IMG/VR virus record: IMGVR_UViG_3300025120_000019
Length of the DNA: 64,000 nt
Origin: a virus
Direction: 5' to 3' (one strand)
Shown: positions 13,301 to 64,000 of the stretch, piece after piece
How positions within the stretch are numbered: position 1 is the stretch's first letter
Layout: every line of letters begins with the position of its first letter
Made by a program: the position numbers and the translations under genes
The notes under the pieces: generated by a model
What the model saw: the letters and a program-made list of their open reading frames with translations, nothing else
The model's database searches: none
Told to the model about the DNA's origin: nothing

Positions 13301-16117
13301 GGTGTTAACAACGGTTCAAAAACTATTACATTAGGCGGATCGTTTACACACACCGGTGCTCACACATTAGGAATTACTACAACAGGAAACACAAGTGTAA
13401 CATTACCAACAAGCGGTACTATTGCAAGAGTAGATGACGGACTAAATCAATTCGCGGCAACTACTTCGGCACAATTAGCTGGTGTATTAAGTGACGAAAC
13501 TGGCACTGGAGTTGCTGTTTTTGGTACAAGCCCAGAAATTACAACAAGTATTACAACAGGTAGTACAACATTTGGCTTAATAGATGCTACTGCTACAACT
13601 GTTAACTTTGCTAGAGCGGCCACAGCTTTAAAAATGGGTGCCGCTACTGGTACAACTACTATACAAAACAACTTAAACGTTGACGGTGACATCGAAATTG
13701 ATGGAGGAGATTTAACATTTAGCGATGCAAGTATTAACATTGCTAACACTACTCCAACCACTGTAAATTTTGCAGATGCGGCATCAACATTAAATATTGG
13801 TGCTACAACTGGTACAATGACATTGAAAAATACAAACATTGTTATTACTAACGACTTAGCAATTAATGGTACATCATTAGATACAGATGAAACTGCAACG
13901 TTTAACCTACTTAAAGATAATGTAACTACTATTGCATTTGGACAAGCGGCAACAGCTATTCAAATGGGTGCAACAACTGGCACAACAACAGTAAGAAACA
14001 ATCTAACTACAGATGGTGACTTAACTATTTCTGCAGGTGGCGTGCTTATAGCAGATGCTATTAATAACATTCCAATTGGAAATTTAACACCAAGCTCAGC
14101 CGCATTTACAACCCTTACAGCAAATAATTTTGTTACGTTCACAGATGCTACAAATGCAACAGGTGATTTTGCAAGTGGTAGTGCATCAGTTAAAATGACA
14201 GGCGGATTACACGTAGCAAAAGATATAAAAGCTGATAACTTCATAGGTGATGCTAGTGCAAGTGACCTTACAAGTGGTACTATTCCAGACGCAAGAGTAC
14301 CTTCAAGTGCAATTACACAACACCAAACAGATATTACTGCAACTGGTATATTAAATGGTGGTAGTATTACATCAGGATTTGGTAGCATTAATATTGGTAC
14401 TAGTACATTTTCTGGAAATGGAGGTGGCTTAACTGATCTAGTTGCTACACAATTATCAAGTGGTACAATTCCAGATGCACGTATCCAATCAAGCGGTGTT
14501 ACACAACACCAAGCTGATCTTACAGCAACCGGACAACTTAATGCAGGAAGTATATCAACAGGATTTGGTAACATTGATATTGGAGCAAGTTCGTTTACTG
14601 GAACAGGTGCTTGTTCTTTTGGTGCAACAAGCTTTAATGATAATAATATTACAAATGTTGGTAGTATTGCTTTAGATAGTATTACTTCAGATAATGGAGC
14701 TAGTATTGATTTTAATTCAAATGCAGTGGTAACATTTGCTAACACAAGTTCATCAACAAGTACTACAACAGGCGCTGTAAGAGTAAGCGGTGGTTTGGGT
14801 GTTGCTGGTGCATTATATGCCGCATCAATGTACACTGCTGATGGTAGTAACGTACAATCACTTAATGCAAGTTATCTTGCAAGCGGTACAGTACCAAACA
14901 CAAGGATTGATGGAACATATAGTAACTTAACAGGTACTGGTGCATTAGACGCAGGTGAAATTACTGCTAACTTTGGTAATGTTAATATCGGCACAAGCAC
15001 ATTCACTGGTAATGGTAGTGGGCTTACAAACGTAGATGCTACAACACTTGATAGTATAGATAGTGGTTCGTTTGTGCGTAGTGATGCTGATGACACTATT
15101 ACTGGACTTTTAACAACAAGTAGAAGCGGCGAACAACTAAAACTTAGTGACACTAGTGCAACAGGTAATCCTTATATTGGCTTTTATCAAGGTACTACAA
15201 GAAGAGCTTATATTCAATTTGTAGACTCTGGAGGAATACTACGTTTAGCAAGTGACGAAAACAATGACAGACTAGATATTGGCAACGGAACAACCGGATT
15301 ACAACACTATGTTGATGGCACTGGTTACACTGTATGGACTTCAGCTAATGACGGTACTGGTAGTGGATTAGATGCTGATACACTTGACGGTGTAAACTCA
15401 GGAAGTTTTTTACGTAGCGATGCAAATGATAGTTTCACTGGTACACTAAGCGGTACAGGAAGCATAAACATAAGCGGAAATGTAAGTTGTACAAGTCTAT
15501 CAGGAGATGGTAGCGGTATCACTGGTGTTACAGCAACAAATGCAGGCACACTTGACAACTTAGATAGTTCACAGTTCTTGCGTAGTGATTCAGCAGATCA
15601 AAAAACATCAGGTAGTTTAAGATTTAATGATAGTATTCAATTAAACTTTGGTACAGGAGACGATGCAGAAATTTATCATAATGGTTCGGATTTGTATTTT
15701 GATCTGAATTCAGACGATGATATATACTTTAGAGATGGTAATAGCAGTAACGCAACAAGATTTACTTTTGATATAAGCAGTGGTAACTTTACAGCATCAG
15801 GCGAAATTACAGCGTTCTCTGATGCTACTCTAAAAGACAATATCGAAATTATTGCAGATCCATTAACAAAGATACTAAGTGTAAGAGGTGTAACCTTTAC
15901 TCGTACTGATCTTGCTGATACTGAAACAAGACACATGGGTGTAATTGCACAAGAAATAGAAGAGCATTTCCCAGAGGTTGTAACCACACATGAAGAATCA
16001 GGTATTAAAACTGTAAACTATGGTGCTATGGCAGGTGTGTTTATCGAAGCAATAAAAGCACAGCAAACTCAAATTGATGATCTTAAAAGAATGGTTAAAA
16101 AGTTAACCGATAAATAG
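4328..16117 (+). CDS. Giant tail fibre / adhesin (3929 aa) with beta-helix-like domain, repeat modules and C-terminal intramolecular chaperone (peptidase S74)
   Basis: N-terminal KIKHKRSAVAGKQP...GELAINTADGK fibre motif; YVS...GDD.NDG...KTIKRA / IKGDGLR pectin-lyase-like start; ITxxxHGF modules; TLD..xS..FxRSD repeats; C-terminal FSDATLKDNI...GVIAQEIE..FPEVV...VNYG + coiled coil (S74). Confidence 0.85.
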   Translation: MATKIKHKRSAVAGKQPSVSQLESGELAINTADGKVYLLRDDNTVQDITKRVFEGNTELKVDDLGDSTSAAITARVNADDKMIITDNGININDDVQIENANTLTLKELTGSGADGVSLKAPDTLDAGYSLTLPPNSGTIGQLLKTDANGNLSFTDPDIFGGNVVYVSNEQGDDINDGQSAPVKTIKRACQIASGLVYNTDGTTNNKRVNVKVAVGDYTEQNPIIVPDNTVIKGDGLRGCILRPANANEDMLRVRNACYFGEVTFRDGVDENGVPLITFDYAVAFDDPFDVTVARVGYTNMPTSRPFITTSPYIQNCSILSFLGGNGAKIDGSKITSPNVGLVPSEQENPVVGSIPEQGKSMVANAFTILSFGGTAWRLTNDAYAQIVSCFEIFLLNGVYTQSGGYCSITNSATNFGLYALRSSGYSPKAFEFDRAFVSSTGAFEGLQTLSVVGINRASPVEEFVLRFRDPDYKTARDLLLLAKNTIATDTVSYINTQIAGASASIWAGYDYDPLQAKCERDTKLLVDAIRYDAAFNTNYRSIASVITYFNGRQTPAVFESQRLQEVDAFTQAKAFTTNITQDSTYDARVNALWDEVIDILEHSGTYTAGTGTSYNAASGSLILNVGAHDLTVGTQIEIAPNSLSFSCDYGQGAHTYVGGTVTDAITITSGSVKRDVTDATYNHATGVMELTIGSHSFTTSDTVTIETNSLTFTCAADSNATNHTYPRVGDPADGVAIAISAVSGTTITVNVGAVGSSSSTKTYPRAVNASNGDPDPAYKTPVTITAVNATTVTVNIGNAGSAASSAHTFESATANSITVAGTGTFSDPTGYNTSYLAGYGNARAQLIANRKFIVAEITAYVNNQIAAGTAPFSKTFTYSKEKCEEDIGHYLDAFLYDLTYGGNLQTIDAANQNFTNTTQAGGLANNRLSEYGEKAQTLAAYVRLKEVLGQIVQEQTVTKSGGGVHTYVGGTVTNAVTITAPNQSTVQRDVTNATYDPDTGLSVITIGSHSFTTSDKATIVTNSLSFTCDTDGNTVTKTYPRSTDPAAGTALSIASVTGNTITVNIGKSGNTVTQDVSGTAGGSDTAVFVQARMQEVIDFITADGATQPTKIDPGVSWVAQAYQDDLIRLNAEGQKNIAQNVSGYIETQTEAAKWYNFVYDSAKCLRDTKLIVEAVAKDTWDTGNRYSRSAGLSYYTKNLADSSQISISGQERQTIDAIKKARDLALTYITSVSAGTQNFVSSRFDIVTTIINDPGDLPDAQDVSSEGDTTNNFKTNATEKSFNAATDVNIGVDVITITGHGFANLQKVIYTANGNTPLGGLDEEQTYYINIINDDEFKLTFDESGDFPVDIRVLSTGSHKFLSGVIEFFVQEITSSHTTYQQLELESGSESFVFTPGKSIAGTTGSSNNSAIVSSWEPAERRLIVSVEQVAVGSSLLRIQFDATSVITADHAGTPNASIGVNAVQAKTGLGSATFSVKATDGSSSLTNLGNLPESQVWFHRPSIVNSSSHTWEYAGSGTDYNALPQNGGNTKAEFEQFEELPGRVYSSGTNELGDFKVGDFITAFNRTGNITFRNKVQVDELDALRLSVSDVIIEEISTSVNLGDDELGGATNTRLSTQLAVRSFISNRLGGFVDKTVSTAAVPGAIVQLNVNGQLNADLIPATRQFTNTNTFGYLSRLDQIDDIPAVDLKAGDIGTENYEQQELTLSGNISAADGATITQPTSFGATGYAKGLYGNSGNILVASITGEWIAGDDSTGSQWATGAGNNLFVDGVDSGVYPTALGVVSEIVDNFFIKTSNSSQFLVLDPTPNYTFTTNAIANAARTSNVSTITTSGAHNLQIGNTVNVTIADNSTFDENAVVISTPTATSFTYANVDPDNVGSFSVTSGTVGTVVKSADGDAQGKVTETRFGVATGVDNAAITGGSLYTPTTGSKIYKNIPMTAVTGSGTGARANITVTAGQITDVDLIRGGTGYASGDELGASPTDIGGTGSGFKIVCTAIEKRIYVDIIGGVLFVASTSSVDFVEDNTAIANKKTINLDDNISKNFLAGSSGGSGNVDYTNDRITITNHGFTTGDPVSYDTLTNVPIGGLTNTQVVYVKVIDANTIELYEGFSLLNKVEFLTTPANNNHNLTRKTVNITDNSIIVEGHGFTTGNALRLVTLSDGSSSNALFSVGGTAIASGSRFFVGSVTTNSFTLHTLRSDALSSINDLVTNAQDIDGIGVGSAEVIQQNVQVISQVNSSSKTVSNWNSLAVTNIDASNIISGIVSPSRLGGAGTPNSDTFLRGDSAYSVVVQKLKKASTTDNPITLTGSSISQEFYGTVNVGVNNIDLNPGGTFSTLGTSRFLQSQFDVASDASGQVFLKDGVIDAGTLDSLDSAYFLNPANLTSAVPVNRGGTNLTTYAVGDIIYASTTGTLNPLNIGRKDSVLKVSATGIPEWGTALDLAEGLDVGAAKLTSSSTGAGQVYNANVSSLEIGGAATNIAFGSTADTRNIFTLLASYEANASQSVVANLTSITQTTNGVAANGDKEIPLTSTTGILSGMLITGSASIPANTTVTGVTENFIYLSAETTGTVASALTLTFTYTPFTLGINVGDTINVASSTIANLDGSWPVTGATENATSFTFQTDANVTASNGDTPAGALTIDSNFVVKNTKFVLGNAEHATTPEPGRLLGTSGIGTDKSGGSISIEGGLGTGNGTGGDVIIKTGDVSTTGDIKHTSKQRMKIDTQGHVGIGEHEPDTTLHIKETAGTDTTFTMQRGANTDRNQIVFEQADGTAVGHIKHDAGGNDIVIGNYNGSAIIDRIKITGTNGNVEITSDLEVDGGDITTDQATFNLINTNATSVNAFGAATTIQMGTGGDGGGSTTIGHDLVVQGDLTVNGSQTTINSTTLTVDDKNIVIASGAADSSAANGAGITIDGASATLTWDHANTTWDSNQDFNLASGKEYFINDASVLNATTLGSAVVNSSLQTLGTITTGVWNGTIIDPTYGGTGVNNGSKTITLGGSFTHTGAHTLGITTTGNTSVTLPTSGTIARVDDGLNQFAATTSAQLAGVLSDETGTGVAVFGTSPEITTSITTGSTTFGLIDATATTVNFARAATALKMGAATGTTTIQNNLNVDGDIEIDGGDLTFSDASINIANTTPTTVNFADAASTLNIGATTGTMTLKNTNIVITNDLAINGTSLDTDETATFNLLKDNVTTIAFGQAATAIQMGATTGTTTVRNNLTTDGDLTISAGGVLIADAINNIPIGNLTPSSAAFTTLTANNFVTFTDATNATGDFASGSASVKMTGGLHVAKDIKADNFIGDASASDLTSGTIPDARVPSSAITQHQTDITATGILNGGSITSGFGSINIGTSTFSGNGGGLTDLVATQLSSGTIPDARIQSSGVTQHQADLTATGQLNAGSISTGFGNIDIGASSFTGTGACSFGATSFNDNNITNVGSIALDSITSDNGASIDFNSNAVVTFANTSSSTSTTTGAVRVSGGLGVAGALYAASMYTADGSNVQSLNASYLASGTVPNTRIDGTYSNLTGTGALDAGEITANFGNVNIGTSTFTGNGSGLTNVDATTLDSIDSGSFVRSDADDTITGLLTTSRSGEQLKLSDTSATGNPYIGFYQGTTRRAYIQFVDSGGILRLASDENNDRLDIGNGTTGLQHYVDGTGYTVWTSANDGTGSGLDADTLDGVNSGSFLRSDANDSFTGTLSGTGSINISGNVSCTSLSGDGSGITGVTATNAGTLDNLDSSQFLRSDSADQKTSGSLRFNDSIQLNFGTGDDAEIYHNGSDLYFDLNSDDDIYFRDGNSSNATRFTFDISSGNFTASGEITAFSDATLKDNIEIIADPLTKILSVRGVTFTRTDLADTETRHMGVIAQEIEEHFPEVVTTHEESGIKTVNYGAMAGVFIEAIKAQQTQIDDLKRMVKKLTDK
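6286..7246 (+). repeat. Dispersed direct repeat inside the fibre gene: identical 28-mer tcatacttatgtaggtggtactgtaaca at 6286-6313 and 7219-7246, heading ~100-aa duplicated domains
   Basis: Direct nucleotide comparison; protein copies HTYVGGTVT...RDVT.ATY...TIGSHSFTTSD...FTC...TYPR..DPA. Confidence 0.9.
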
Positions 16118-16745: not shown

Positions 16746-17329
16746 TGAAAATTAGTATATGTGTTCCTTGCAGAGATCAAGTACACACTCTGTTTACACA
16801 AAGTTTAGTTAATCTGACCAATAGACTTACCCGCAAGCAAATAGATTTCGAATTGCATCTGTTTGCCGGAAGTGTAATCTGTGAGTCACGCACAAGACTT
16901 GTTAACGAAGCTTTATCTGTAAATAGTGATAAAATATTATTTTTGGATAGTGATATACAATTTCCTTCAAATGTAGTAGACAAGCTAAATTCTCATAATA
17001 AAGATATTGTTGGAGCAACTTATAGCACAAGATATCCACCTTATCAAACTGTAGCATTTACTAATCCAGATAATATAAAAGATAGATTAGGTGTTTCTAG
17101 TGGGCTACATAAAATTTGGGCTGTAGGAATGGGATGTATGTTGATTGATAAAAATGTATTTTATACATTGCCTAAACCTTGGTTTAATCACGAATATAAT
17201 AAAATAGACGATACGTTTAGCGGAGAAGATATATACTTTTGCAATCAGGCAATGCATCACGGCGTAGATGTATGGATAGATGCTGATATAAAATTAGCAC
17301 ATATAGGAACAAAGGCATACACATTATGA
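16745..17329 (+). CDS. Glycosyltransferase family 2-like protein
   Basis: KISICVP start, LFLDSD (DxD), GMGCMLID, SGEDIYFC, HIG motifs. Confidence 0.8.
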   Translation: MKISICVPCRDQVHTLFTQSLVNLTNRLTRKQIDFELHLFAGSVICESRTRLVNEALSVNSDKILFLDSDIQFPSNVVDKLNSHNKDIVGATYSTRYPPYQTVAFTNPDNIKDRLGVSSGLHKIWAVGMGCMLIDKNVFYTLPKPWFNHEYNKIDDTFSGEDIYFCNQAMHHGVDVWIDADIKLAHIGTKAYTL

Positions 17330-20300
17330 AAGCCATAGACAGATTTAACAAATTTTCTAAGCCTTTACACAACGGACAAGATCAGTTAAAAAATCTTATA
17401 TTTGATAGATATCCAGTATTAAGGATAGATGACTATTGTGATCTTGACAAAGTTTATCAACAAAATATAGATAGCGATTATGTGTGGGTAGTTGATAAAA
17501 ACATTAAAGTATTTGATAGCTTTCCTTGGTGGTTCAAACCAAGGTCAAACGACATTATACAAATACACGAATTTCCTTATGTGTACAAAGAAAGTAGAAA
17601 AATAAAAAGTTGGGATAAAGTGCGTTTAGTACCAACTAAAAAAACACAGCATGAACCACGACAGCATATTCACATCTGTGGAGAATATGATGTATATAAA
17701 GGCAATAGCAAATTTGATTGCTTTTACATAGGAGAAAATCAAGACGATATAAATTCTATACAGCAAAAAGTTCCGCATCTACAAACAGTTAAAACATGGC
17801 AAGAAGCACAACAACGTAGCTACACAGATATGTTTTGGGTAATATGGGAAGATGTTGATGTTAGAAATACATTTAAATTTAGTTTTAAGCCAGACGAATG
17901 GAGTCATGATTTTGTCCATGTGTTTGGCAATGGCGATATTGATCAACTAGACGGAGTAGCATTATTTCCAAAAAATTATAATATAACAGAAAAAGAATTA
18001 GAACATAGATTTTATGTGAATAAAAAAGAAGTTCGTATTATGGCAAGTACTCCAAAAAAATACGAAAGGTTTATCATTGATAATTATGAAGACTACGAAA
18101 ATGCATCACGTAAATCAACTAATGATATGTTCTGGGGAGTTCCGTCTGATGTAGAAATTATTGAAGAATTTGATTTTGATTATTATATTAGTCACCACGA
18201 TAAATCTTTAAGAAAACAAAATCATGTATTTTTAAATAAAAACAAATACAACGGAGTTGTTTTGTTTAGCAAACATTCTATTGTTACAAAAAAAGAAATT
18301 GCATATAGATTTGTTGTTAATCCTATAGAAACTAATATCGTAGCTTCTAAACCTCACCCTATTAAAGTGTTTAGAATGAACAATTATGCAGACTACGAAA
18401 AGGCATTAGAAAATAGTAAAACTCATGTTTTTCTCGGTGTTCCAGATGATGTGATATTGGATAAAAATTTTAATATAGACGAATGGATAGCAGAACAAAA
18501 AACCTTAGATACAGGAACTACACATTTATTTTTAAATGATAAACATTATGATGGTGTTGCTCTTTTTAGTAAAAGTTTTAAGGTTACAAAAAAAGAAATA
18601 AATCATAGATTTCTTGTAAGTAATAAAGAACATAATATAATAGCAAGCATTCCTCGCCCTTATGAAAAGTTTACAATTAATAATTATGAAGATTATTTAC
18701 AAGCACTACAAGATTCTAAAACAGAAATGTTTTGGCTTATTCCTAGCGATGTAGATGTAAAAGACGATTTCAATTTTAATTTGTACTTTAGTCATCACAA
18801 TAAATTTGATAAAGAAATAAATCATGTATTTTTAAATGATAAGAACTATGATGGAATAGCTTTAATGAGCAAAGAATGTATAGCAACTGAAAAAGAAATT
18901 AATCATAGATTTTTTATTAATAAAAAAGAACATGAAGTAGTTGCAAGTACTCCTAAACCATTTGATAAATTTATTATAAAAGATTATGACGATTACTTAA
19001 AAGCAAAAGAAACATCAAAAACAGGAATGTTTTGGATTATATATCATGATATTAATGTTGTGGAAGATTTTAATTTTAATATGTACATATCGCATCATAA
19101 TCAATATGAAAGAAAAATTAATCATGTGTGGAAGAATGGTGAATACTACGATGGAGTTGCACTAGTAACAAAAAATATAGTTCTTACAAAACACGAAATA
19201 GATTATAGATTTTTAGCAATTAAAAAAGAATATACCGAGGTTGGAAGTTATCCTAGTACATTTGATATTGTCTTTATTAGTAACGGTGAAAATAATGCTG
19301 ATAAAAATTATGAAAGATTGACTTCATCATACCCTAATGCTAAAAGAGTTGATAAAGTTAAAGGAATACACCAAGCACATATCGAAGCCGCAAAGCTTGT
19401 AGATACTGAAATGTTTTGGGTAGTTGACGGTGATGCCGAATTACTAATGGACTTTGAGTTAGATTATCAAATTGCATATTACGACATAGATGGGAAACGT
19501 ACTGTATATGTATGGAGGAGTATGAATCCTGTTAACGGATTAGTTTATGGATATGGCGGCGTAAAACTTTTACCAACAAACCTTACTTTGAATATGGATG
19601 TTAATACTGCTGATATGACCACAAGTATAAGTAAAAACTTTAAAGGTATTCCTCGCATGAGTAATATTACAGCATTCAATACTGATAGCTTTAGTGCTTG
19701 GAGAAGTGGATTTAGAGAATGTGTAAAACTTTCTAGTAGGACAATTAATAGACAAAAGGATGACGAAACAACATTTAGATTAAAGTCTTGGTGTTCAAGA
19801 GGACAAGAAAAGGAGTTTGGTGCTGAAACAATAACAGGTGCATATGAAGGAGCAAAGTATGGAATTAAATGGAAAAATAATCCAGATGCTTTGAAAAAAA
19901 TAAATGATTTTGAATGGTTGAAGAAAAGATTTAAGGATACTTATCCACCAAAATCTTTTGATTTTGATTTGGACTTTTTAGATTATTCTGAGGAAGAAAG
20001 TCTTAAAGCGTTTAATCCTATTGTAAGCACAATGTTTAAAGAAATTGAAAATAAGCTAGGAAAGAATTATAAATTTCAGCATGGTAGTGTAAAGTTATCA
20101 GTCACTAATGTTGGAGATTTATTTTGGGATAAAAAAGGTGTAAGAGTAAGTAGCGAATATGCAGATACAGAGATAACAACAGATCTTAAAACAGGCTTAA
20201 AACTTCTAAAAATGGAAGATGATTCTGTAGAAATGTACAAGCGTGGTGATTTTTTATTAGAAGGTGATGCAGACTTAGCAATGCTATTTTTTGATGATTT

Positions 20301-20625
20301 AAAACAGCAGGTTTTACATAAAGAAGAGACCAAAATAGCATTACATAGAATAGCTCTATCAAGTATTGTTGATAATGAATTATTAGATATGCAAATAAAC
20401 ATTAATAAAGTTGGATCAATTAGCATAGATAATAATGGTATTATAGAGAAAGATAACAAAAAAGAAACATATATTGAACTTGATCAAGAGATATTTGAAC
20501 AAATATTAGAAAATGAATTATCTGTTGTTGATGCATTACAGGAAAAAAGTATAACTTATAAAGGTGATATTTTACAAGTTATTAAGTTAAGTCAACAGCT
20601 TGATCGTCAAGAAACACATGAATGA
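17326..20625 (+). CDS. Glycosyltransferase-like tandem-repeat protein (1099 aa) with C-terminal tandem SCP2-like domains
   Basis: Repeated MFWxxxxDV units; terminal GT-A-like unit FDIVFIS...FWVVDGD...YGYGGVKL...AWRSGFRECVKL; two C-terminal segments ending GDFLLEGDADLAM / KSITYKGDILQV. Confidence 0.65.
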   Translation: MKAIDRFNKFSKPLHNGQDQLKNLIFDRYPVLRIDDYCDLDKVYQQNIDSDYVWVVDKNIKVFDSFPWWFKPRSNDIIQIHEFPYVYKESRKIKSWDKVRLVPTKKTQHEPRQHIHICGEYDVYKGNSKFDCFYIGENQDDINSIQQKVPHLQTVKTWQEAQQRSYTDMFWVIWEDVDVRNTFKFSFKPDEWSHDFVHVFGNGDIDQLDGVALFPKNYNITEKELEHRFYVNKKEVRIMASTPKKYERFIIDNYEDYENASRKSTNDMFWGVPSDVEIIEEFDFDYYISHHDKSLRKQNHVFLNKNKYNGVVLFSKHSIVTKKEIAYRFVVNPIETNIVASKPHPIKVFRMNNYADYEKALENSKTHVFLGVPDDVILDKNFNIDEWIAEQKTLDTGTTHLFLNDKHYDGVALFSKSFKVTKKEINHRFLVSNKEHNIIASIPRPYEKFTINNYEDYLQALQDSKTEMFWLIPSDVDVKDDFNFNLYFSHHNKFDKEINHVFLNDKNYDGIALMSKECIATEKEINHRFFINKKEHEVVASTPKPFDKFIIKDYDDYLKAKETSKTGMFWIIYHDINVVEDFNFNMYISHHNQYERKINHVWKNGEYYDGVALVTKNIVLTKHEIDYRFLAIKKEYTEVGSYPSTFDIVFISNGENNADKNYERLTSSYPNAKRVDKVKGIHQAHIEAAKLVDTEMFWVVDGDAELLMDFELDYQIAYYDIDGKRTVYVWRSMNPVNGLVYGYGGVKLLPTNLTLNMDVNTADMTTSISKNFKGIPRMSNITAFNTDSFSAWRSGFRECVKLSSRTINRQKDDETTFRLKSWCSRGQEKEFGAETITGAYEGAKYGIKWKNNPDALKKINDFEWLKKRFKDTYPPKSFDFDLDFLDYSEEESLKAFNPIVSTMFKEIENKLGKNYKFQHGSVKLSVTNVGDLFWDKKGVRVSSEYADTEITTDLKTGLKLLKMEDDSVEMYKRGDFLLEGDADLAMLFFDDLKQQVLHKEETKIALHRIALSSIVDNELLDMQININKVGSISIDNNGIIEKDNKKETYIELDQEIFEQILENELSVVDALQEKSITYKGDILQVIKLSQQLDRQETHE
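18061..19260 (+). repeat. Four tandem 300-nt (100-aa) intragenic repeats starting at 18061, 18361, 18661 and 18961, with more degenerate copies upstream
   Basis: Units begin YERF/IKVF/YEKF/FDKF and share (N/D)Y.DY..A, HVFLN...YDG(V/I)AL, KKEI.HRF motifs at an exact 300-nt period. Confidence 0.9.
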
Positions 20626-54123: not shown

Positions 54124-54318
54124 ATGAAAAACTGGACTAAAAATTCTCCATATAGAAACAAAGACAAAGATGAAATTGCTGATATATTTTATGAACAATT
54201 CAAAAAGCATGGTGTTAGACTTCCAGAAACATATACAGAGCAAGAACTAATTGACTTAAATCCTGGAGTTCCTGTATGGTTCACTAAACAACATATGAAA
54301 TTGAGAGACAAAAAATGA
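54124..54318 (+). CDS. Small hypothetical protein
   Basis: Fills the gap; ATGA overlap with gap. Confidence 0.55.
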   Translation: MKNWTKNSPYRNKDKDEIADIFYEQFKKHGVRLPETYTEQELIDLNPGVPVWFTKQHMKLRDKK

Positions 54319-55274
54319 AAGTAGGTATAAATGGATTTGGCCGAATTGGAAGGTGTTTAGCAAGACATATTATGAGCGAACGCAGTGATATGGAACTTGT
54401 ACAAATTAATGCAACAGGTGGGCAAGAAACGAACTTGCATTTGTTAAAATATGATAGTGTACATGGACGATACACAGGGCCAATACAAGATCCTATACTG
54501 TGGACACAAGAACGTGATATAAGCAAAATAAGATGGTTTAATGTTGATATTGTATTTGAATGCACTGGTGCGTTTAGAGATGGCGATGTTTGTATGCATC
54601 ATGTATCAGGGGGTGCAGGAAAAGTAGTTATTAGTAGCCCAGCAAAGAATGTAGACAAAACAGTTGTATACGGAGTTAATCATAAAGATATAGGCAGTAG
54701 CGATTATATAGTAAGCAATGCTAGTTGTACAACAAATTGTTTAGCACCTCTTGTTAAAGTCTTAGACGAAACAGTTCATATTATTTCTGGTCAAATGACA
54801 ACAATACATAGTTATACTGGTGACCAAAGTACAATAGATAAACGCCATAAAGATCCATATCGTGCTAGAGCCGCAGGTGCAAATATGATACCAACTAGCA
54901 CAGGAGCCGCTAAAGCATTAGATATAGTATATCCTAAACTTGCTGGTAAAATAAAAGGAAGTTCGATACGTGTTCCAACACCTAATGTAAGTTGTGTTGA
55001 TTTGACTGTGCAAGTAGGGCGTGAAGTAGATAGTGATACTATTAATACTATTTTTAAACTTAGTTCAGAAAACGATATGAAAGATATAATTGGTTATGAA
55101 GAAGATCCTTGTGTAAGTATTGATTTTAATACTACAAGAGAGAGTGCAATATTTGCTCCAGAACAAACAAGAGTTTCAGATAACCATTTAGTAAGAATAC
55201 TCGCATGGTATGATAATGAATGGGCTTTTTCGTGTAGGATGGCCGATGTTGGAAATTATATAGGTAGCTTATGA
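54315..55274 (+). CDS. gap: Type I glyceraldehyde-3-phosphate dehydrogenase (auxiliary metabolic gene)
   Basis: GINGFGRIGR, ECTG.F, SNASCTTNCLAP catalytic motif, HSYTGDQ, IPTSTGAAKA, RVPT, WYDNE. Confidence 0.95.
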   Translation: MKVGINGFGRIGRCLARHIMSERSDMELVQINATGGQETNLHLLKYDSVHGRYTGPIQDPILWTQERDISKIRWFNVDIVFECTGAFRDGDVCMHHVSGGAGKVVISSPAKNVDKTVVYGVNHKDIGSSDYIVSNASCTTNCLAPLVKVLDETVHIISGQMTTIHSYTGDQSTIDKRHKDPYRARAAGANMIPTSTGAAKALDIVYPKLAGKIKGSSIRVPTPNVSCVDLTVQVGREVDSDTINTIFKLSSENDMKDIIGYEEDPCVSIDFNTTRESAIFAPEQTRVSDNHLVRILAWYDNEWAFSCRMADVGNYIGSL

Positions 55275-55558
55275 TAAATCAAAGAATAAAGGCAGGAGTA
55301 AAGTTAATAGAAGGCGAGGCTTTAATATATACTAGAGCAAATGGTGTAATATACGCTAATTATAGAGATCCACCGCATAATAAAATTCCAAGATGGATAA
55401 TAGGAGGAGACCCTGCCGCAGTAGCAAGAGAACAAGGCGAATTATTAGATTACAGTGAATGGCAAAACTTATGTGAAATTGCAATTCAAAATCCCACATT
55501 AAAAAAGTTGTTAGATAAACTTGTAACAACATATTATATTATAAAGGAACACAAATAA
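55271..55558 (+). CDS. Hypothetical protein
   Basis: Coupled ORF. Confidence 0.6.
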   Translation: MINQRIKAGVKLIEGEALIYTRANGVIYANYRDPPHNKIPRWIIGGDPAAVAREQGELLDYSEWQNLCEIAIQNPTLKKLLDKLVTTYYIIKEHK

Positions 55559-55791
55559 TGTTAAAAACAAATTCAATGTTAAATAAACTTTTAGAATGGC
55601 TAATTGGTGGTAGTAGTATTACATTAGCAATCGTTTATACAATAGGTCATATGTTTATTGCTATTGTATGCGTAATCACCATTACAGGTGCAAGTATTGA
55701 ACTTGCGGCAATTGATGCCTTAGTTGAACCTATTATTAATGGTGTATGGTTTTATGTGTTACATACAGCATGGAAAAGATTTCAAAAATAA
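55558..55791 (+). CDS. Small two-TM membrane protein (DUF2061-like)
   Basis: Hydrophobic; EP..N..WFY.LH..W pattern. Confidence 0.6.
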   Translation: MLKTNSMLNKLLEWLIGGSSITLAIVYTIGHMFIAIVCVITITGASIELAAIDALVEPIINGVWFYVLHTAWKRFQK

Positions 55792-56570
55792 TGAGAATAA
55801 TATCAGGCCCTTGCCAGCACGAAAGCTTAGAACAAAGTTTAGAAATTGCACAGCATTGTAATGATGTATGTAGTAAGTATAATGCAGAATATTTTTTTAA
55901 AGCAAGTTTTGATAAAGCTAATAGAAGTAGTTTAGGTGGGAAACGTGGAGTAGGCTTTAATACAACACTACACGACTTCCAAGAGATACGTAGTATAGTG
56001 GGCTCTAAGACGCTTACAGACGTTCATACAGTAGAACAAATTAAAGATATAGTAAACTACCACAATACTGCCGTAGACGTGCTACAGATACCTGCATTCT
56101 TATGTAGACAAACTGATTTACTACAAGAGGCTTGTGCTACAGATAAAATTGTAAACATCAAGAAAGGCCAGTTCCTTGCACCCTGGGACATGAATGGAAT
56201 ACTGTCAAAGACAGAAGGTGCCAGAGAAGTTTGGATAACAGAGAGAGGAACAAGTTTTGGATATAATACTCTTGTTGTTGATTTTACTGGCTTGGACTAT
56301 ATGCTTAGTAATTACGATACTCCTGTGGTTCTTGATGCCACCCACTCGGTACAGAAGCCAGGCGGTCTCGGAGGCAGTAGCGGCGGCAATCGCAATTACG
56401 TTCCTAGTTTATGTAGGGCAGGTAGTGCTTTGGGTATTAGGAATTTCTTTTTAGAAGTACATCCAGATCCAGATAATGCACCTAGTGACGGACCTAATAT
56501 GTTAAATTTAAATGACTTTGAAAAAGTAGTAAAGGAGATACATGACTACAGCTATACTAATTCCAGCTAG
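55791..56570 (+). CDS. kdsA: Kdo 8-phosphate synthase; start refined to ATG 55791
   Basis: GPC..E, FKASFDKANRSS, TDVH, QIPAFLCRQTDL, KKGQF, ERG.SFGY, DATHSVQ.PG, EVHPDP..A.SDG. Confidence 0.95.
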   Translation: MRIISGPCQHESLEQSLEIAQHCNDVCSKYNAEYFFKASFDKANRSSLGGKRGVGFNTTLHDFQEIRSIVGSKTLTDVHTVEQIKDIVNYHNTAVDVLQIPAFLCRQTDLLQEACATDKIVNIKKGQFLAPWDMNGILSKTEGAREVWITERGTSFGYNTLVVDFTGLDYMLSNYDTPVVLDATHSVQKPGGLGGSSGGNRNYVPSLCRAGSALGIRNFFLEVHPDPDNAPSDGPNMLNLNDFEKVVKEIHDYSYTNSS

Positions 56571-57204
56571 ATATGCAAGCACAAGATTCCCAGGAAAAAT
56601 GATGGCACACCTTAATGGAGTGCCGTTGATTGAACACGTTTATAATAGATGTGCAGGCACTGGATATGATACATATGTACTAACCGATCACCAAGATGTT
56701 TTTAATCATATGGGTGGTAAATGTCTTATGACAACAGATGCAGATAATGGAACTGAACGTTGTATGCAAGTTATAGATGAAAAGCTACAATATGATAGAT
56801 ATATAAATGTACAAGGGGATATGCCAGATATTACTACAGATATTATCAAAGCTGTAGAAAGAGAACTGCAACGTAGTGATGTAGCAACTGCTTATACACC
56901 GATGGATTTTAACTTGCGAAATGATCCAAACTGTGTTAAAATGATACATAACAGAGGACGAGCACACTGGTTTTTACGAGCAAGTTTAACTTACGGAGAT
57001 CATCATTTAGGAATATATGGCTATAATAGAGAATCCAAAGCTATGTATAATATAAGTAAAAAGTTTCCTGAAGAAGATATTGAAAAGTTAGAACAGTTAC
57101 GCTGGATACAAAACGGTATAAAGATTGGTGTAGTTGAAGTAGAATTTGATGGGATTGAAATAAACACTCCGGAGGATTTAGAAAAGTGGCAAACAAAGAA
57201 CTAG
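56542..57204 (+). CDS. kdsB: CMP-Kdo synthetase
   Basis: IPARYASTRFPGK, GTER, NVQGD, HLGIYGY, EKLEQLR, INTPEDL. Confidence 0.93.
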   Translation: MTTAILIPARYASTRFPGKMMAHLNGVPLIEHVYNRCAGTGYDTYVLTDHQDVFNHMGGKCLMTTDADNGTERCMQVIDEKLQYDRYINVQGDMPDITTDIIKAVERELQRSDVATAYTPMDFNLRNDPNCVKMIHNRGRAHWFLRASLTYGDHHLGIYGYNRESKAMYNISKKFPEEDIEKLEQLRWIQNGIKIGVVEVEFDGIEINTPEDLEKWQTKN

Positions 57205-57656
57205 ACTTATTCAAAGAGCTAATACCAAGCATTGATAATGGTATTAAAGAATTATATGATGCCGCAGGAGAAGACGGAAAGAAAGATATTAAACTTGACT
57301 TATGGAATCTAAACCGTTATATTAGTAGTATCAAAGGTAGTAGAGAAGAACAAGAATTAGCTGTATTTAAAGTTAATGAATATTATAATAGAAATTGGAA
57401 CGTATTAGGCGGAACAGATCATGTAAAATTGCAATGGCAACTATTATGTGTAGCAGGCAATTTTGGAAAAAAGAAATTTCATCCATGGATTGGCTTGAAA
57501 AAGAAAAAAGACGATAGCAGTAAAGCAGTAAAAGTATTAGCAAACATATATCCAAATATGAAAATGGACGAGGTAGAAACACTTGCTAGAATATCTACAA
57601 AGAAAGAAATTAAGCAACTCGCCAAAGAACATGGTTACGAAAAAGTTGACATCTAA
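57186..57656 (+). CDS. Probable clamp loader small subunit (T4 gp62-like)
   Basis: NRYIS...N...H..LQ...KKFHPW..KK pattern; GGAGG SD with GTG start. Confidence 0.5.
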   Translation: MANKELDLFKELIPSIDNGIKELYDAAGEDGKKDIKLDLWNLNRYISSIKGSREEQELAVFKVNEYYNRNWNVLGGTDHVKLQWQLLCVAGNFGKKKFHPWIGLKKKKDDSSKAVKVLANIYPNMKMDEVETLARISTKKEIKQLAKEHGYEKVDI

Positions 57657-58326
57657 GTATACTTGTGAATATTGTAATAAAAGCTACACAAAAGAAAGCA
57701 CACTCATTGCTCATATGTGTGAGCCTAAAAGGCGTTGGTTACAGAAAGATGAAAAACGTGTACAATTAGGGTTCTATGCATTTCAAAGATTTTACAAGTT
57801 AAGTGCAGGATCTAAAAAAGAAAAAACATATAACGAATTTGTTAAGTCTAGTTTTTATAACGCATTTGTAAAATTTGGTAGTTTTGTAAGCAATGTTCGC
57901 CCTTTATATCCAGACAAGTATATTGACTGGGTAGTTACATCACGTGTAAAACTAGATCACTGGTGTAAAGATGAAATGTATGAAACATATGCAAATGAAT
58001 TAATCAGGAAGGAAGGAGTCGAAACTGCATTAGAACGTAGTATAAATACAATGGCTGAATGGGCCAAAGAACATGATAGTTCTTATAATCATTATTTTTT
58101 ATACGCTAGTACAAATAGAATTACTTGGGATATAAAAGATGGCAAAATATCTCCGTGGATATTATTAAATTGTAAAACAGGAAAAGCAGTTCTTAATAAT
58201 TTAAACGAAGAACAACTTACAATGCTTACAAATGTGTTAGATCCTAGACACTGGGCAGTTAGATTTAGAAGACAAATTAAAGATTTAGAATTGGTACAAC
58301 AAGTAGTAAAAGAAGCAAACTTATGA
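57631..58326 (+). CDS. Zinc-finger (CxxC...H.C) replication-associated protein
   Basis: YTCEYCNKSYTKESTLIAHMC; GKISPW; start uncertain (57631 ATG or 57646 TTG). Confidence 0.6.
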   Translation: MVTKKLTSKYTCEYCNKSYTKESTLIAHMCEPKRRWLQKDEKRVQLGFYAFQRFYKLSAGSKKEKTYNEFVKSSFYNAFVKFGSFVSNVRPLYPDKYIDWVVTSRVKLDHWCKDEMYETYANELIRKEGVETALERSINTMAEWAKEHDSSYNHYFLYASTNRITWDIKDGKISPWILLNCKTGKAVLNNLNEEQLTMLTNVLDPRHWAVRFRRQIKDLELVQQVVKEANL

Positions 58327-58901
58327 ATAATATGCCTGACATAGATATCGATTTTGCAGATAGATCTAAAATTTTAGATAAAATAAAACATCGTGTGGCA
58401 AAATTAGATTCTGGTAAAAAACATAATACTGGAATTTATGCAACTGAGATTCCACACAACCCTGTTGATAATTTATCAACAATCGACCACAAAGAAGCAG
58501 AACAAAGAGGATACTTTAAACTTGACTTTTTAAATGTTTCTATCTATAAAGAAATAACCAACGAACAACATTTAAACCAATTAATGAATAAGGAACCAAT
58601 ATGGGAACTACTGGAACACAAAGACTTCGTCGATCAGCTGTTTCATCTAAGCGGACACGACAAACTATTAAAACAATTGAAACCTACATCGGTAGAGCAT
58701 TTGGCCGCGACACTAGCGATAATAAGACCAGCCAAAAGAAATTTAGCAAATCAATCGTGGCAAACAATAATGGAACAAGTTTGGATAAAACCAAAAGACG
58801 GTGAATATTTTTTTAAGAAAGCTCATGCTATTGCATATGCTGTAAGTGTAATTGTACACATGAATTTAGTTTGTGAAAGCTATCTTTTACGTAATACTTG
58901 A
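58323..58901 (+). CDS. Miniature DNA polymerase III alpha (DnaE, C-family)-like protein, 192 aa
   Basis: PDIDIDF, KHNTG, FKLDFL, LAIIRPA and YFFKKAHAIAYA occur in DnaE order. Confidence 0.8.
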   Translation: MNNMPDIDIDFADRSKILDKIKHRVAKLDSGKKHNTGIYATEIPHNPVDNLSTIDHKEAEQRGYFKLDFLNVSIYKEITNEQHLNQLMNKEPIWELLEHKDFVDQLFHLSGHDKLLKQLKPTSVEHLAATLAIIRPAKRNLANQSWQTIMEQVWIKPKDGEYFFKKAHAIAYAVSVIVHMNLVCESYLLRNT

Positions 58902-59245
58902 ACGCTTTTTCTTTTAATTCTTTTACTAGATAAATTATTGATATTGACACACGGACCAACACTTACTTTGACATCTTTTGTATTCATTGTCATCATGCAA
59001 TAGTTAAATTTTTCCATTTCTTTTTTTAGAAATATATTAATAGGAATCATTCTATTTGATTCCCACCACCAAATTTCTCCTACTTCAAGAAAAACTTTTT
59101 TTTCTATATCTGATTTAATTTTGTTGAAAACAAACATAGTAGTGACATATGCATCTTGATTAGATACAATACCTACATATTCGTGTCCACCGTATGCAAC
59201 CACACTTACGTATGGGAAGTTTTTTTCAATATCTTTTAATAACAT
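58880..59245 (-). CDS. Conserved-looking hypothetical protein
   Basis: EYVGIV.N, WWWESNRMIPINIFL; minus-strand TAAGTA at 59259-59264 and AGGA SD. Confidence 0.65.
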   Translation of the reverse strand: MLLKDIEKNFPYVSVVAYGGHEYVGIVSNQDAYVTTMFVFNKIKSDIEKKVFLEVGEIWWWESNRMIPINIFLKKEMEKFNYCMMTMNTKDVKVSVGPCVNINNLSSKRIKRKSVQVLRKR

Positions 59246-60667: not shown

Positions 60668-61645
60668 ATGAGCATTGTATCGGATATTCTGACTGCACAC
60701 TTGCCTGCAAAACGCAAAACTACTCCTAGTGGTTGGACTAGTTTTCGTGCGCCTTGTTGTGTCCATAACGGCGAAACACAGGATAAAAAAGGACGTGGTG
60801 GTATTATATACGAAGGTGATGTAATATCATATCATTGTTTTAATTGCGGATATAAAGCCAGTTGGCAACCAGGACGTAATTTAAGTTATAAATTTAAAAA
60901 ACTTTTAGAATGGTTAAACACAGCCGATAGTGATATTACAAAATTAGCACTAGATGTTATGCGTGAAAACGAAGGAGTTGAAGTTCAACAACATAGAATA
61001 GAACTGCCAGAATTTGCAACAACACAGCTTCCTAATAATAGTGTAAAAATTAATAATATAACAACATTTGATAAACATAGTACAGCGGTATTAGAATATA
61101 TGTCAGCAAGACATTTAAACTTAGATGATACAGATTATTACTGGTCTCCAGAACTTGCTTATAGAGATAGAATAATAATTCCTTTTTATTATGAAAATAG
61201 AATAGTAGGTTATACAGCAAGAACAGTTAAAGATAATAAAGTTAAGTACCTCACAGATAGTCAACCTGGATTTGTGTATGGACTAGACGAACAAAATTCA
61301 AACAAAGTATTTTGTATTTTATGCGAAGGGCCTATAGATGCTATTCATATTGATGGTTGTGCATTGACAGGTAGTGACATAAATGATCAGCAAGCATTGT
61401 TATTAAACAGACTTAACAAAGATATATTTGTTGTACCAGATAGAGATAAAGCTGGTAGTAAACTTGTTGAGCAAGCTATTGATAGAGGATGGAGTGTAAG
61501 TTTACCTACTTGGGAAGAAGGAATAAATGATATAGGAGATGCAGTTAATAAATACGGTAGATTGTATACACTTTATAGTGTGTTTAATTCTGCAGAAAGC
61601 TCACCGCTTAAGATTAGATTGAAAGCAAAAAAATGGTTTACTTAA
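60668..61645 (+). CDS. DNA primase (T4 gp61-like; zinc-binding + TOPRIM)
   Basis: PCC...YHCFNCG, RIIIPF, GYTAR, KYL, CEGPIDA, PDRDKAG, ND..D. Confidence 0.9.
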   Translation: MSIVSDILTAHLPAKRKTTPSGWTSFRAPCCVHNGETQDKKGRGGIIYEGDVISYHCFNCGYKASWQPGRNLSYKFKKLLEWLNTADSDITKLALDVMRENEGVEVQQHRIELPEFATTQLPNNSVKINNITTFDKHSTAVLEYMSARHLNLDDTDYYWSPELAYRDRIIIPFYYENRIVGYTARTVKDNKVKYLTDSQPGFVYGLDEQNSNKVFCILCEGPIDAIHIDGCALTGSDINDQQALLLNRLNKDIFVVPDRDKAGSKLVEQAIDRGWSVSLPTWEEGINDIGDAVNKYGRLYTLYSVFNSAESSPLKIRLKAKKWFT

Positions 61646-61871: not shown

Positions 61872-62813
61872 ATGAAAATCATTACTGGAAATGCTAATAA
61901 AAAATTAGCACAAGAGATCGCAGAACATTGCTTTGCTCCAATAGTTCCTGCAAATGTTAGTGCGTTTGCAGATGGAGAAACTAGCGTTGAATTTTTAGAA
62001 AATGTAAGAGGGCAAGATGTTTTTATTGTTCAACCAACATCAACACCAGTCAATGATAGTATAATGGAACTAATGATTATGATTGATGCGGCACGTAGAT
62101 CAAGTGCTAATAGAATTACAGCAGTTATTCCTTACTTTGGATATGCTAGGCAGGACCGTAAGAGTGCGTCACGTACTCCTATTACTGCTAAACTTGTCAG
62201 TAATTTAATTACAACATCAGGTGCTGATAGAATTCTTACTATGGACCTCCACGCTGGTCAGATACAAGGTTTCTTTGATATTCCTGTAGATGATCTTACC
62301 AGCCGGGTAGTTTTTGCAAAAGACATACGCCGTAATATAGATACAACTCAAGGTATGGTGTTTGTAAGTCCTGATGCAGGTGGTGTTGTTCGTGCTAGGA
62401 AGTTTGCAGATATGTTTGGTGGGGACATTGCTATAGTAGATAAACGTAGACCAGAAGCTGGCAAGTCAGAAGTAATGAATTTAATTGGCGATGTAACCGG
62501 CAAGCACGCCATACTAGTAGATGATATTGTAGACAGTGGTGGAACATTATGTAATGCGGCAAAGGCAATTTTAGATGCAGGTGCATTAAGTGTTAGAGCA
62601 TATATTACACACGGAGTATTAAGCGGAGAAGCTTGTCAAAAAGTTGAAAAGAGTGTTTTAGAAGAACTTGTAGTAACTGACAGTATTTTAGATCATTGTC
62701 CAAAAAATTGTAAAAAAACAAGGTATGTTACTGTATCTAATCTGTTTGGTGAAGCTATAAGACGTGTGCATAATGAGGAATCTGTTAGCACATTATTCAA
62801 TCAAAAATTATGA
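61872..62813 (+). CDS. prs: Ribose-phosphate pyrophosphokinase (PRPP synthetase)
   Basis: [48 protein letters not shown]. Confidence 0.97.
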
Positions 62814-64000
62814 TTACATGGGGTATTAGTGGCAATAGTCACGATGCATCACTAGCTGTTTTTAAACACTACCCTTGGTTAGAAATATTGTTTGCTAGTC
62901 ATAGTGAACGATATAGTGGCAAGAAAAATGATGCACATTTAAATACTGCATTAATAAAAGATGCTTTAAATTATGGTGAGCCCGAAGAAGTTATTTGGTA
63001 TGAAAATCCATATAAAAAAACATTAAGACAAATATATGCAGGACAAGGTTATAAAACATTTAAGAAAAATCGCATACGCAAGTATCTACGCAATTATAAC
63101 ATTAAGTGCCCTGTACATTTTGTTGATCATCATAGGGCTCATTGTGCTGGCGGTTATTATACATCAGGCTTTACTGATGCTACTGTAATTTGTATAGATA
63201 GTATAGGAGAGTTTGAAACACTAAGTATCTGGAATGCAGAGGGTAATAAATTAAAACGTGTATATAGTCAAGGATATCCGAATAGTGTAGGACTTTGGTA
63301 TTCGGCTATGACGCAACGTATAGCTTTAAAACCACAAGAAGATGAATATATACTTATGGGTATGGCCGCATATGGAGACCCTAATCGTTTTTATGATAGT
63401 ATACATAATGATTTACTAACTATTAATAACCTGGGTACTAAACCTCTTATACAATTTAAACAAAATTTACATAGGGGGTGCTTATGGTGGCAACCAGAAT
63501 ACAATAGCCCCCAGGATATTTTAGACATAGCATCATCAACCCAACGGGTGTATGAAGAAATTTTTGATCACGTTCTTAAACAGGCTAGAATGAAAACTAG
63601 TAGTAAGAACTTAGTAGTAATGGGTGGATGTGCTTTAAACTGTTCGGCTAATTCGCAAGCATACAATTATTTTGATAATGTGTGGATTATGCCTAACCCG
63701 GGTGATGCAGGCAGTGCATTAGGTGCTGTTTTAAGTCACTATGATAAACATATTGAATGGCCCGGACCTTTTCTTGGCCACAACATAGAAGGAGATTATC
63801 CATATGAGAACATCATACAGGAACTTAAAAAGACAGGTATCGTTGGCGTGGCTAACGGCAGGGCTGAGTTCGGTCCTAGGGCTCTTGGCAATCGTAGCCT
63901 TATTGCTGATCCTAGGGGCATGGATGTCAAAGACAGGGTTAATGCTATCAAACATAGACAGCAATTTAGACCATTCGCACCAGCAATTATCTCTGACAGA
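62810..64000 (+). CDS. Carbamoyltransferase (NodU/CmcH family), 3'-truncated by window; not in ORF track
   Basis: [78 protein letters not shown]. Confidence 0.92.

Follow-up and report, generated by a model that had tools for sequence, protein, structure and literature searches.

A marine giant-phage gene encoding the C-terminal unit of the split minimal DNA polymerase III alpha family

C-family DNA polymerases are known as the large single-chain replicases of bacteria. A split minimal DNA polymerase III alpha has been described from sequence in the group 2.2 jumbo phages by Iyer, Anantharaman, Krishnan, Burroughs and Aravind (Iyer et al. 2021, Viruses 13:63, PMC7824862, section 3.4.1), and that section already reaches the same two-gene model to which our own analysis leads. 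Members of the corresponding protein family, phrog_11778, are labelled 'DNA polymerase' or 'DNA polymerase III alpha' in Atu_ph07, PA5oct-like phages, RaK2, GAP32, 121Q and others. Our literature search found no biochemical test of any member of the split minimal Pol III alpha family, and none after Iyer et al. 2021. Here we examine a 64,000-nucleotide stretch of viral DNA (IMG/VR record IMGVR_UViG_3300025120_000019; hereafter the window) with a focus on the gene at 58323..58901 (+), which encodes a protein of 192 aa. This protein, which we call the C-half, represents the C-terminal unit of the split minimal Pol III alpha, the part that binds metals and template (PMC7824862; phrog_11778). For this window the work is a confirmation and an annotation rather than a discovery, the idea having been published earlier (PMC7824862).

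The window is part of an uncultured marine T4-like giant myovirus. Its genes include those for a tail sheath, a tail tube, a large terminase, a gp32-type SSB, UvsX, a UvsW-type helicase and a DnaG-type primase. A megablast search with 14 kb against deposited phages gave no nucleotide match, and over 15.7 kb the window shares 99.96% identity with a marine metagenome contig of 178 kb. On both sides of the replication module (54315-57204 and 61872-64000) lie auxiliary metabolic genes, which encode GAPDH (Gp_dh_N/C), KdsA-like (DAHP_synth_1) and KdsB-like (CTP_transf_3) proteins, a PRPP synthetase and a carbamoyltransferase. Elsewhere in the window, the one domain recognised in a 3929-aa ORF at 4328-16117 (+) is an endosialidase-chaperone (Peptidase_S74) at the C-terminus, so this ORF presumably encodes a giant tail fibre; a 1099-aa ORF at 17326-20625 has no family match. 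Past the window end (L268:16125-20579), the genome goes on to encode an aldolase-like protein, DnaB, a dioxygenase of the TauD family, a protein of 230 aa and a NifU-like protein.

Near relatives, whose C-halves are 75-79% identical to that of the window, additionally encode a complete, PHP-less DnaE-like polymerase of 549 aa (PF07733, E 5e-41; fingers PF17657, E 3e-16). Its gene adjoins DnaB and lies ~6-8 kb downstream of the C-half gene (L087:541-2187:- of IMGVR_UViG_3300020442_000013; L090:16351-17463; L045; L012/L013; L008). These near relatives therefore carry two kinds of C-family polymerase genes. The 549-aa protein is about 25% identical to the mini C-half over 113 residues. Neither the window nor the next 4.9 kb contains this gene; instead, TauD and the 230-aa gene follow DnaB there (L268).

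The 192-aa ORF is the only long frame at 58323-58901 (+). Its ATG shares the tetranucleotide ATGA with the stop codon of an upstream C2H2 zinc-finger gene, and another in-frame ATG is found three codons downstream, at 58332. The ORF holds five motifs in the same order as in DnaE, all on the plus strand. PDIDIDF (58335..58355, residues 5-11), which aligns with SMPDIDIDF of M. tuberculosis DnaE1, bears the first two catalytic aspartates, D6 and D8, which correspond to E. coli DnaE D401 and D403. KHNTG (58419..58433, residues 33-37) is the counterpart of the DnaE H-x-G-G palm strand; it pairs with KHCGG of the 549-aa phage protein in BLASTP and falls on strand E33-39 of the structural model described below. 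FKLDFL (58515..58532, residues 65-70) contains K66 and the third catalytic aspartate, D68, which corresponds to D555 of E. coli DnaE, and it likewise pairs with LKVDIL of the 549-aa protein in BLASTP and lies on model strand E66-71. Two fingers motifs follow: AIIRPA (58716..58733, residues 132-137), corresponding to DnaE ALYRPG and aligned with IALYRPG of DnaE1, and YFFKKAHAIAYA (58806..58841, residues 162-173), corresponding to DnaE Y-x-F-N-K-S-H-A and aligned by phmmer to DYAFNKSHAAGY of DnaE1. The phmmer alignment with M. tuberculosis DnaE1 is collinear throughout (residues 3-16 with 412-425, 91-141 with 616-667 and 160-174 with 773-787). An initial annotation of this DNA, made from the letters alone, had placed the five DnaE motifs exactly here, and the collinear alignment with DnaE1 and with the 549-aa phage protein bears this out.

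Profile searches place the protein in the same family, and their matches, like those of the fold comparisons below, go well beyond chance expectation. The C-half matches phrog_11778 ('DNA polymerase') with E 1e-59, residues 4-186 covering positions 6-194 of the 197 in the profile, and it gives a weak match to the full-length DnaE family phrog_405 (E 2e-11). Residues 91-140 match Pfam DNA_pol3_finger; the C-half does not reach Pfam gathering thresholds. Structure prediction of the C-half alone, a check that the initial annotation had proposed, yielded a DnaE-type palm/fingers fold. The AlphaFold2 model, built on an 80-sequence alignment, has a pLDDT of 96.4 and a pTM of 0.88, and the first 17 Foldseek matches in the PDB are C-family polymerases only. 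Similarly, the 14 best VIA-align matches are all DnaE or PolC, with model residues 1-190 covered. The model superposes on Taq DnaE 458-841 (3E0D; Z 9.9, rmsd 3.7 A, 188 aligned), on E. coli DnaE 397-784 (Z 9.1, rmsd 3.9 A, 184 aligned) and on PolC 968-1363, compared with Z 3.4 for the best unrelated chain.

The model shows a predicted fold that comprises the beta-sheet half of a Pol-beta-like palm, bearing the metal-binding carboxylates D6, D8 and D68 together with K66, and, after this palm half, a trimmed fingers subdomain with the R135-P136 and K165..H168 motifs. Some 385 residues of DnaE are thus represented by 190 in the C-half, and ~200 residues, the thumb included, are gone. By arithmetic on the phmmer alignment to M. 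tuberculosis DnaE1, the loss falls into two blocks, one of ~116 residues between the DxD and KxD strands, which includes the thumb, and one of ~87 residues comprising part of the fingers. This agrees with the earlier reading that the DnaE spacers were deleted and the catalytic residues kept. The C-half lacks the DnaE thumb and roughly half of the fingers, as well as the PHP, clamp-binding and OB domains. The chain begins at DnaE residue 397 and has no match to a PHP domain; the model stops at residue 784 of about 1160, so that the clamp-binding, OB and tau-binding parts are lacking. The GS loop (GRGS) is found neither in the C-half ORF nor in the 64-kb window, which leaves the palm incomplete in the single chain. 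The description of this gene as a miniature polymerase with its motifs compressed into ~190 aa was therefore overstated, since the chain holds only half of the catalytic palm.

The C-half belongs to a large and uniform family. Homologues form 6695 clusters at 90% identity, nearly all of 184-192 aa (184-215 aa overall), and an exhaustive HMMER search gave 424 representatives at 50% identity. Across 80 diverse homologues, down to 30% identity, D6, D8, K66, D68, R135 and P136 are invariant, and D10, H34, G37, Y39, K165, H168 and A173 are at least 90% conserved; none of the 80 has lost a catalytic Asp. Nei-Gojobori dN/dS between the C-half and its nearest relative is 0.034/0.24, and the median over 218 unsaturated pairs is ~0.14. 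The C-half gene is under purifying selection. Random decay, against which the initial annotation had also argued, does not account for the short chain because the catalytic residues are invariant and dN/dS is about 0.14.

The missing half of the palm is encoded elsewhere in related phages. In Pseudomonas phage PAC2 and Agrobacterium phage Atu_ph07 we found a separate gene of 169-177 aa, here termed the N-half, that matches positions 18-98 of PF07733. Its C-terminus reads ...GVGRGSS..YILYIIGVHKVNSIKYDLD..EFLK-stop and so ends right where the C-half (MPDIDIDF) starts in DnaE order; the pattern shared by PAC2 and Atu_ph07 at this end is GVGRGSS..Y.L..IGVHKV.S.KY.LD..EFL-stop, just ahead of DnaE PDxDxDF. 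The two genes lie 43 kb apart in PAC2 and 182 kb apart in Atu_ph07. With tblastn, the C-half was found in 96 phage records and the N-half in 120, about 100 of the latter in the same jumbo phage groups; the remaining records are true DnaE genes from other phages. About 100 cultured jumbo phages carry both halves, and the two families are of similar size (7182 clusters for the N-half vs 6695 for the C-half). Among complete IMG/VR relatives (328-462 kb), each of the six has one N-half, one C-half and one B-family polymerase of ~900 aa. The N-half has conserved neighbours too: a gene of ~78 aa precedes it, and it is followed by a gene of ~100-130 aa bearing an NARGD motif, then a GroES/gp31-like gene and an AAA+ clamp-loader large subunit beginning MKELWVEKYRP... 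(L102:2977-5299, L128, L147, L153 and L106; PAC2 L005:4847-6981; Atu_ph07 L006:2821-5381).

The two halves also occur as a natural fusion. P0245 (L267:1066-2193:+) is a single metagenomic ORF of 375 aa in which residues 8-182 are an N-half (hhalign 99.8%, E 1e-27) and residues 186-375 a C-half; the only instance seen lies on one metagenome scaffold of 2.4 kb. The gene that converges on it from downstream is homologous to the 121-aa gene of the window, which is the usual context of the C-half. The initial annotation had suggested a minimal or split C-family enzyme whose GRGS-containing part might be a separate gene, and the ~170-aa N-half in all six complete relatives, along with the one fusion, substantiates that suggestion.

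Within the window itself, neither tblastn nor a GRGS motif search found an N-half, nor did one turn up in the 4.9 kb beyond (L268), so the GRGS partner that the initial annotation proposed to look for is documented in the six complete relatives and not in this stretch. The same applies to the B-family polymerase on which it also proposed a search: no PolB was found among the window ORFs scanned, which were part of the total, and all six complete relatives have one. Ten related IMG/VR fragments also gave no N-half, and the clamp-loader gene that usually stands beside it is missing there too; these fragments therefore do not cover the N-half region. Shared flanking genes yielded nothing useful for linking N-half contigs to the lineage of the window. 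A terminase search singled out one complete relative, G039. In another genome, G020 (the contig behind L111; 543,035 bp, CheckV 100%), the N-half is present and no C-half match was obtained at E <= 0.001 with the window's protein as query; this genome either has a very divergent C-half partner or is an exception to the pairing.

The C-half gene sits in a conserved module. The gene order is a 156-aa gene, the C2H2 gene, an interval of 0-2.4 kb, the C-half, a convergent 121-aa gene, a virion-protein gene and the primase, and about 82-87 of 88 related loci, those of PAC2 and Atu_ph07 among them, retain the 156-aa/C2H2/C-half/121-aa/primase module. The 156-aa gene (57186..57656, +; phrog_11758) is present in 85 of the 88 loci. 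The C2H2 gene (57631..58326, +; phrog_11058; alternative TTG start at 57583) has a stop that overlaps the C-half start. Of the 88 loci, 87 have it upstream on the C-half strand, and in about 41 it is immediately adjacent; in about half of the relatives (L008-L086), 160-2400 nt of extra DNA, which may consist of small ORFs or mobile elements, separate the two genes. The 121-aa gene (58880..59245, -; phrog_11637), found in 82 loci, overlaps the C-half gene by 22 nt at its 3' end. The DnaG-type primase (60668..61645, +), with a Zn ribbon and a Toprim domain (phrog_47, E 2e-37; Pfam Toprim_2 and DNAG_N), is found in 64 of the 88. A promoter and terminator scan showed nothing above chance. Of the neighbours named in the initial annotation, the zinc-finger gene directly upstream and the primase were correctly recognised, and the clamp-loader-like subunit has no sequence or profile match to a clamp loader. 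The latter was probably the 156-aa ORF at 57186-57656, for which searches with Pfam, PHROG, PDB phmmer and profiles lend no support to a clamp-loader small subunit.

The C2H2 protein consists of one N-terminal classical C2H2 finger and a ~200-aa helical body without a recognisable fold. Its model has a pLDDT of 91.7, Foldseek found nothing at E <= 0.001, the best hit of a wide VIA search reached Z 4.9, and a profile search recognised the zinc finger alone. Two candidate identities were rejected: the T4 gp59 helicase loader superposes with only Z 3.7 and an rmsd of 12 A, and a palm remnant at the C-terminus, proposed from a weak tblastn match (E 1.2), was dropped given an all-helical model without GRGS. 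Complex prediction of the C-half with the C2H2 protein, run without controls, returned a score of 0.00, which speaks in neither direction on whether the two bind. It is conceivable, though rather unlikely in our judgement, that the C2H2 protein, the conserved 121-aa protein or both are dedicated subunits that replace the deleted parts in trans, providing either a thumb-like grip on duplex DNA or a link to the primase or clamp. The C2H2 protein is a candidate here because its gene is translationally coupled to the C-half in the window and lies upstream in 87 of 88 loci. If true, this would make a modular multi-subunit C-family polymerase, of which we have encountered no earlier description.

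Taken with the partner gene, the data make it likely that the C-half is one unit, the C-terminal one, of a minimal C-family (Pol III alpha/DnaE-type) nucleotidyltransferase which T4-like jumbo phages encode in two genes. We infer that the C-half would be inactive alone and would assemble non-covalently with the separately encoded ~170-aa N-half, which would supply the GRGS triphosphate-binding loop and the palm helices. The two together may form a ~360-aa enzyme that extends a primer on a template by adding nucleotides. Such an enzyme would be distributive, because it has no thumb and no clamp contact, and, working without proofreading, could assist the main replicase by filling gaps, extending primers or repairing DNA; the initial annotation had likewise guessed at priming, primer extension or repair. 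The candidate for that main replicase is the B-family polymerase present in all complete relatives examined (6/6). The C-half stands beside the primase and the N-half, in relatives, near the clamp-loader gene, and this conserved placement suggests that the pair belongs to the replication gene set.

Several other readings of the C-half were considered. The 192-aa chain could be self-sufficient, binding dNTP, metals and DNA and polymerising without any N-half, as might be supposed from its confident predicted fold in isolation, its possession of all three catalytic Asp and the fingers motifs, and the lack of a partner in the window. However, the chain has neither the GS/GRGS loop nor the helices that complete the palm of every Pol-beta-like nucleotidyltransferase, its model starting at DnaE 397, and a cognate N-half co-occurs in 6/6 complete relatives and is fused to the C-half once, so we regard activity of the lone chain as very improbable. 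The Pol-beta-like superfamily also includes terminal transferases, RNA or primer synthases and makers of nucleotide signals. A real two-piece enzyme of one of these kinds, rather than a templated DNA polymerase, would be compatible with the lack of a thumb, clamp-binding or proofreading module, with the B-family replicase already present in relatives and with the closeness of the C-half gene to the primase. Yet only the Asp triad is more strongly conserved than the DnaE-specific fingers motifs (RP and K..H). In DnaE ternary complexes these motifs contact the incoming dNTP and the template. Moreover, the closest folds are replicative C-family polymerases only, and on balance a non-templated activity seems unlikely, though less so than a self-sufficient chain.

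The C-half might, on the other hand, have no catalytic role at all and serve as a decoy or adaptor for the C2H2 protein, the 121-aa product, the primase or parts of the host replisome. Conservation of the gene module in about 82-87 of 88 loci would fit such a role, but strict invariance of D6, D8, D68 and K66 at 30% identity is not expected of a mere adaptor, and we give this reading hardly more credit than the next. The least credible explanation is that the gene is a decaying fragment of a phage dnaE. It is far shorter than DnaE and some near relatives have the intact 549-aa DnaE-like gene nearby, as a pseudogene might suggest; against this stand thousands of intact ORFs of the same length, a dN/dS of about 0.14 with invariant catalytic residues, a compact and confidently predicted fold, and a clean start and stop with translational coupling to the upstream gene.

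A two-gene enzyme of this kind would mean that the C-family catalytic core is reducible to about 360 residues spread over two genes. Selection maintains both halves, alongside a B-family replicase, in thousands of genomes of giant phages that come from oceans, soil and gut. The split mini family offers a small and tractable system for studying the minimal requirements of a C-family active site and the reason for which a phage with a replicase of its own retains a further polymerase. The natural fusion, the C-half gene module and the location of the N-half close to the clamp-loader gene may be useful for bench work.

Compared with known systems, the C-half is homologous to bacterial DnaE and PolC (PDB 2HNH, 2HPI, 3E0D and 5LEW) in the palm strands that bear the three catalytic Asp and in the fingers motifs, but it differs from them in lacking the PHP, thumb, clamp-binding, OB and tau-binding parts and in having the GS-loop half of the palm on another polypeptide. 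The PHP-less DnaE-like Pol III alpha of ~550 aa, found for example in Streptomyces and Rhizobium phages and represented here by L087:541-2187:-, is, like the mini enzyme, a phage-borne shortened C-family polymerase; unlike the C-half, it is one chain with a full palm, thumb and fingers. Cyanobacterial split DnaE resembles the phage system in that a C-family polymerase comes from two distant genes, although its split site differs from that of the mini Pol III and, unlike in cyanobacteria, the split ends of the mini Pol III carry no intein fragments, so the association of N-half and C-half would be non-covalent. A split-intein reading was rejected, as N-halves terminate directly behind EFLK and no more than 1-4 residues precede the DxD strand in the C-half. 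The closest counterpart remains the split minimal Pol III alpha of cultured jumbo phages. Unlike those phages, the window's lineage is uncultured and marine and has no nucleotide match to deposited phages, yet its C-half has the same length and motifs and is 35-51% identical to the cultured-phage proteins, and, as in PAC2 and Atu_ph07, it has a C2H2 gene upstream, a convergent small gene and a primase downstream.
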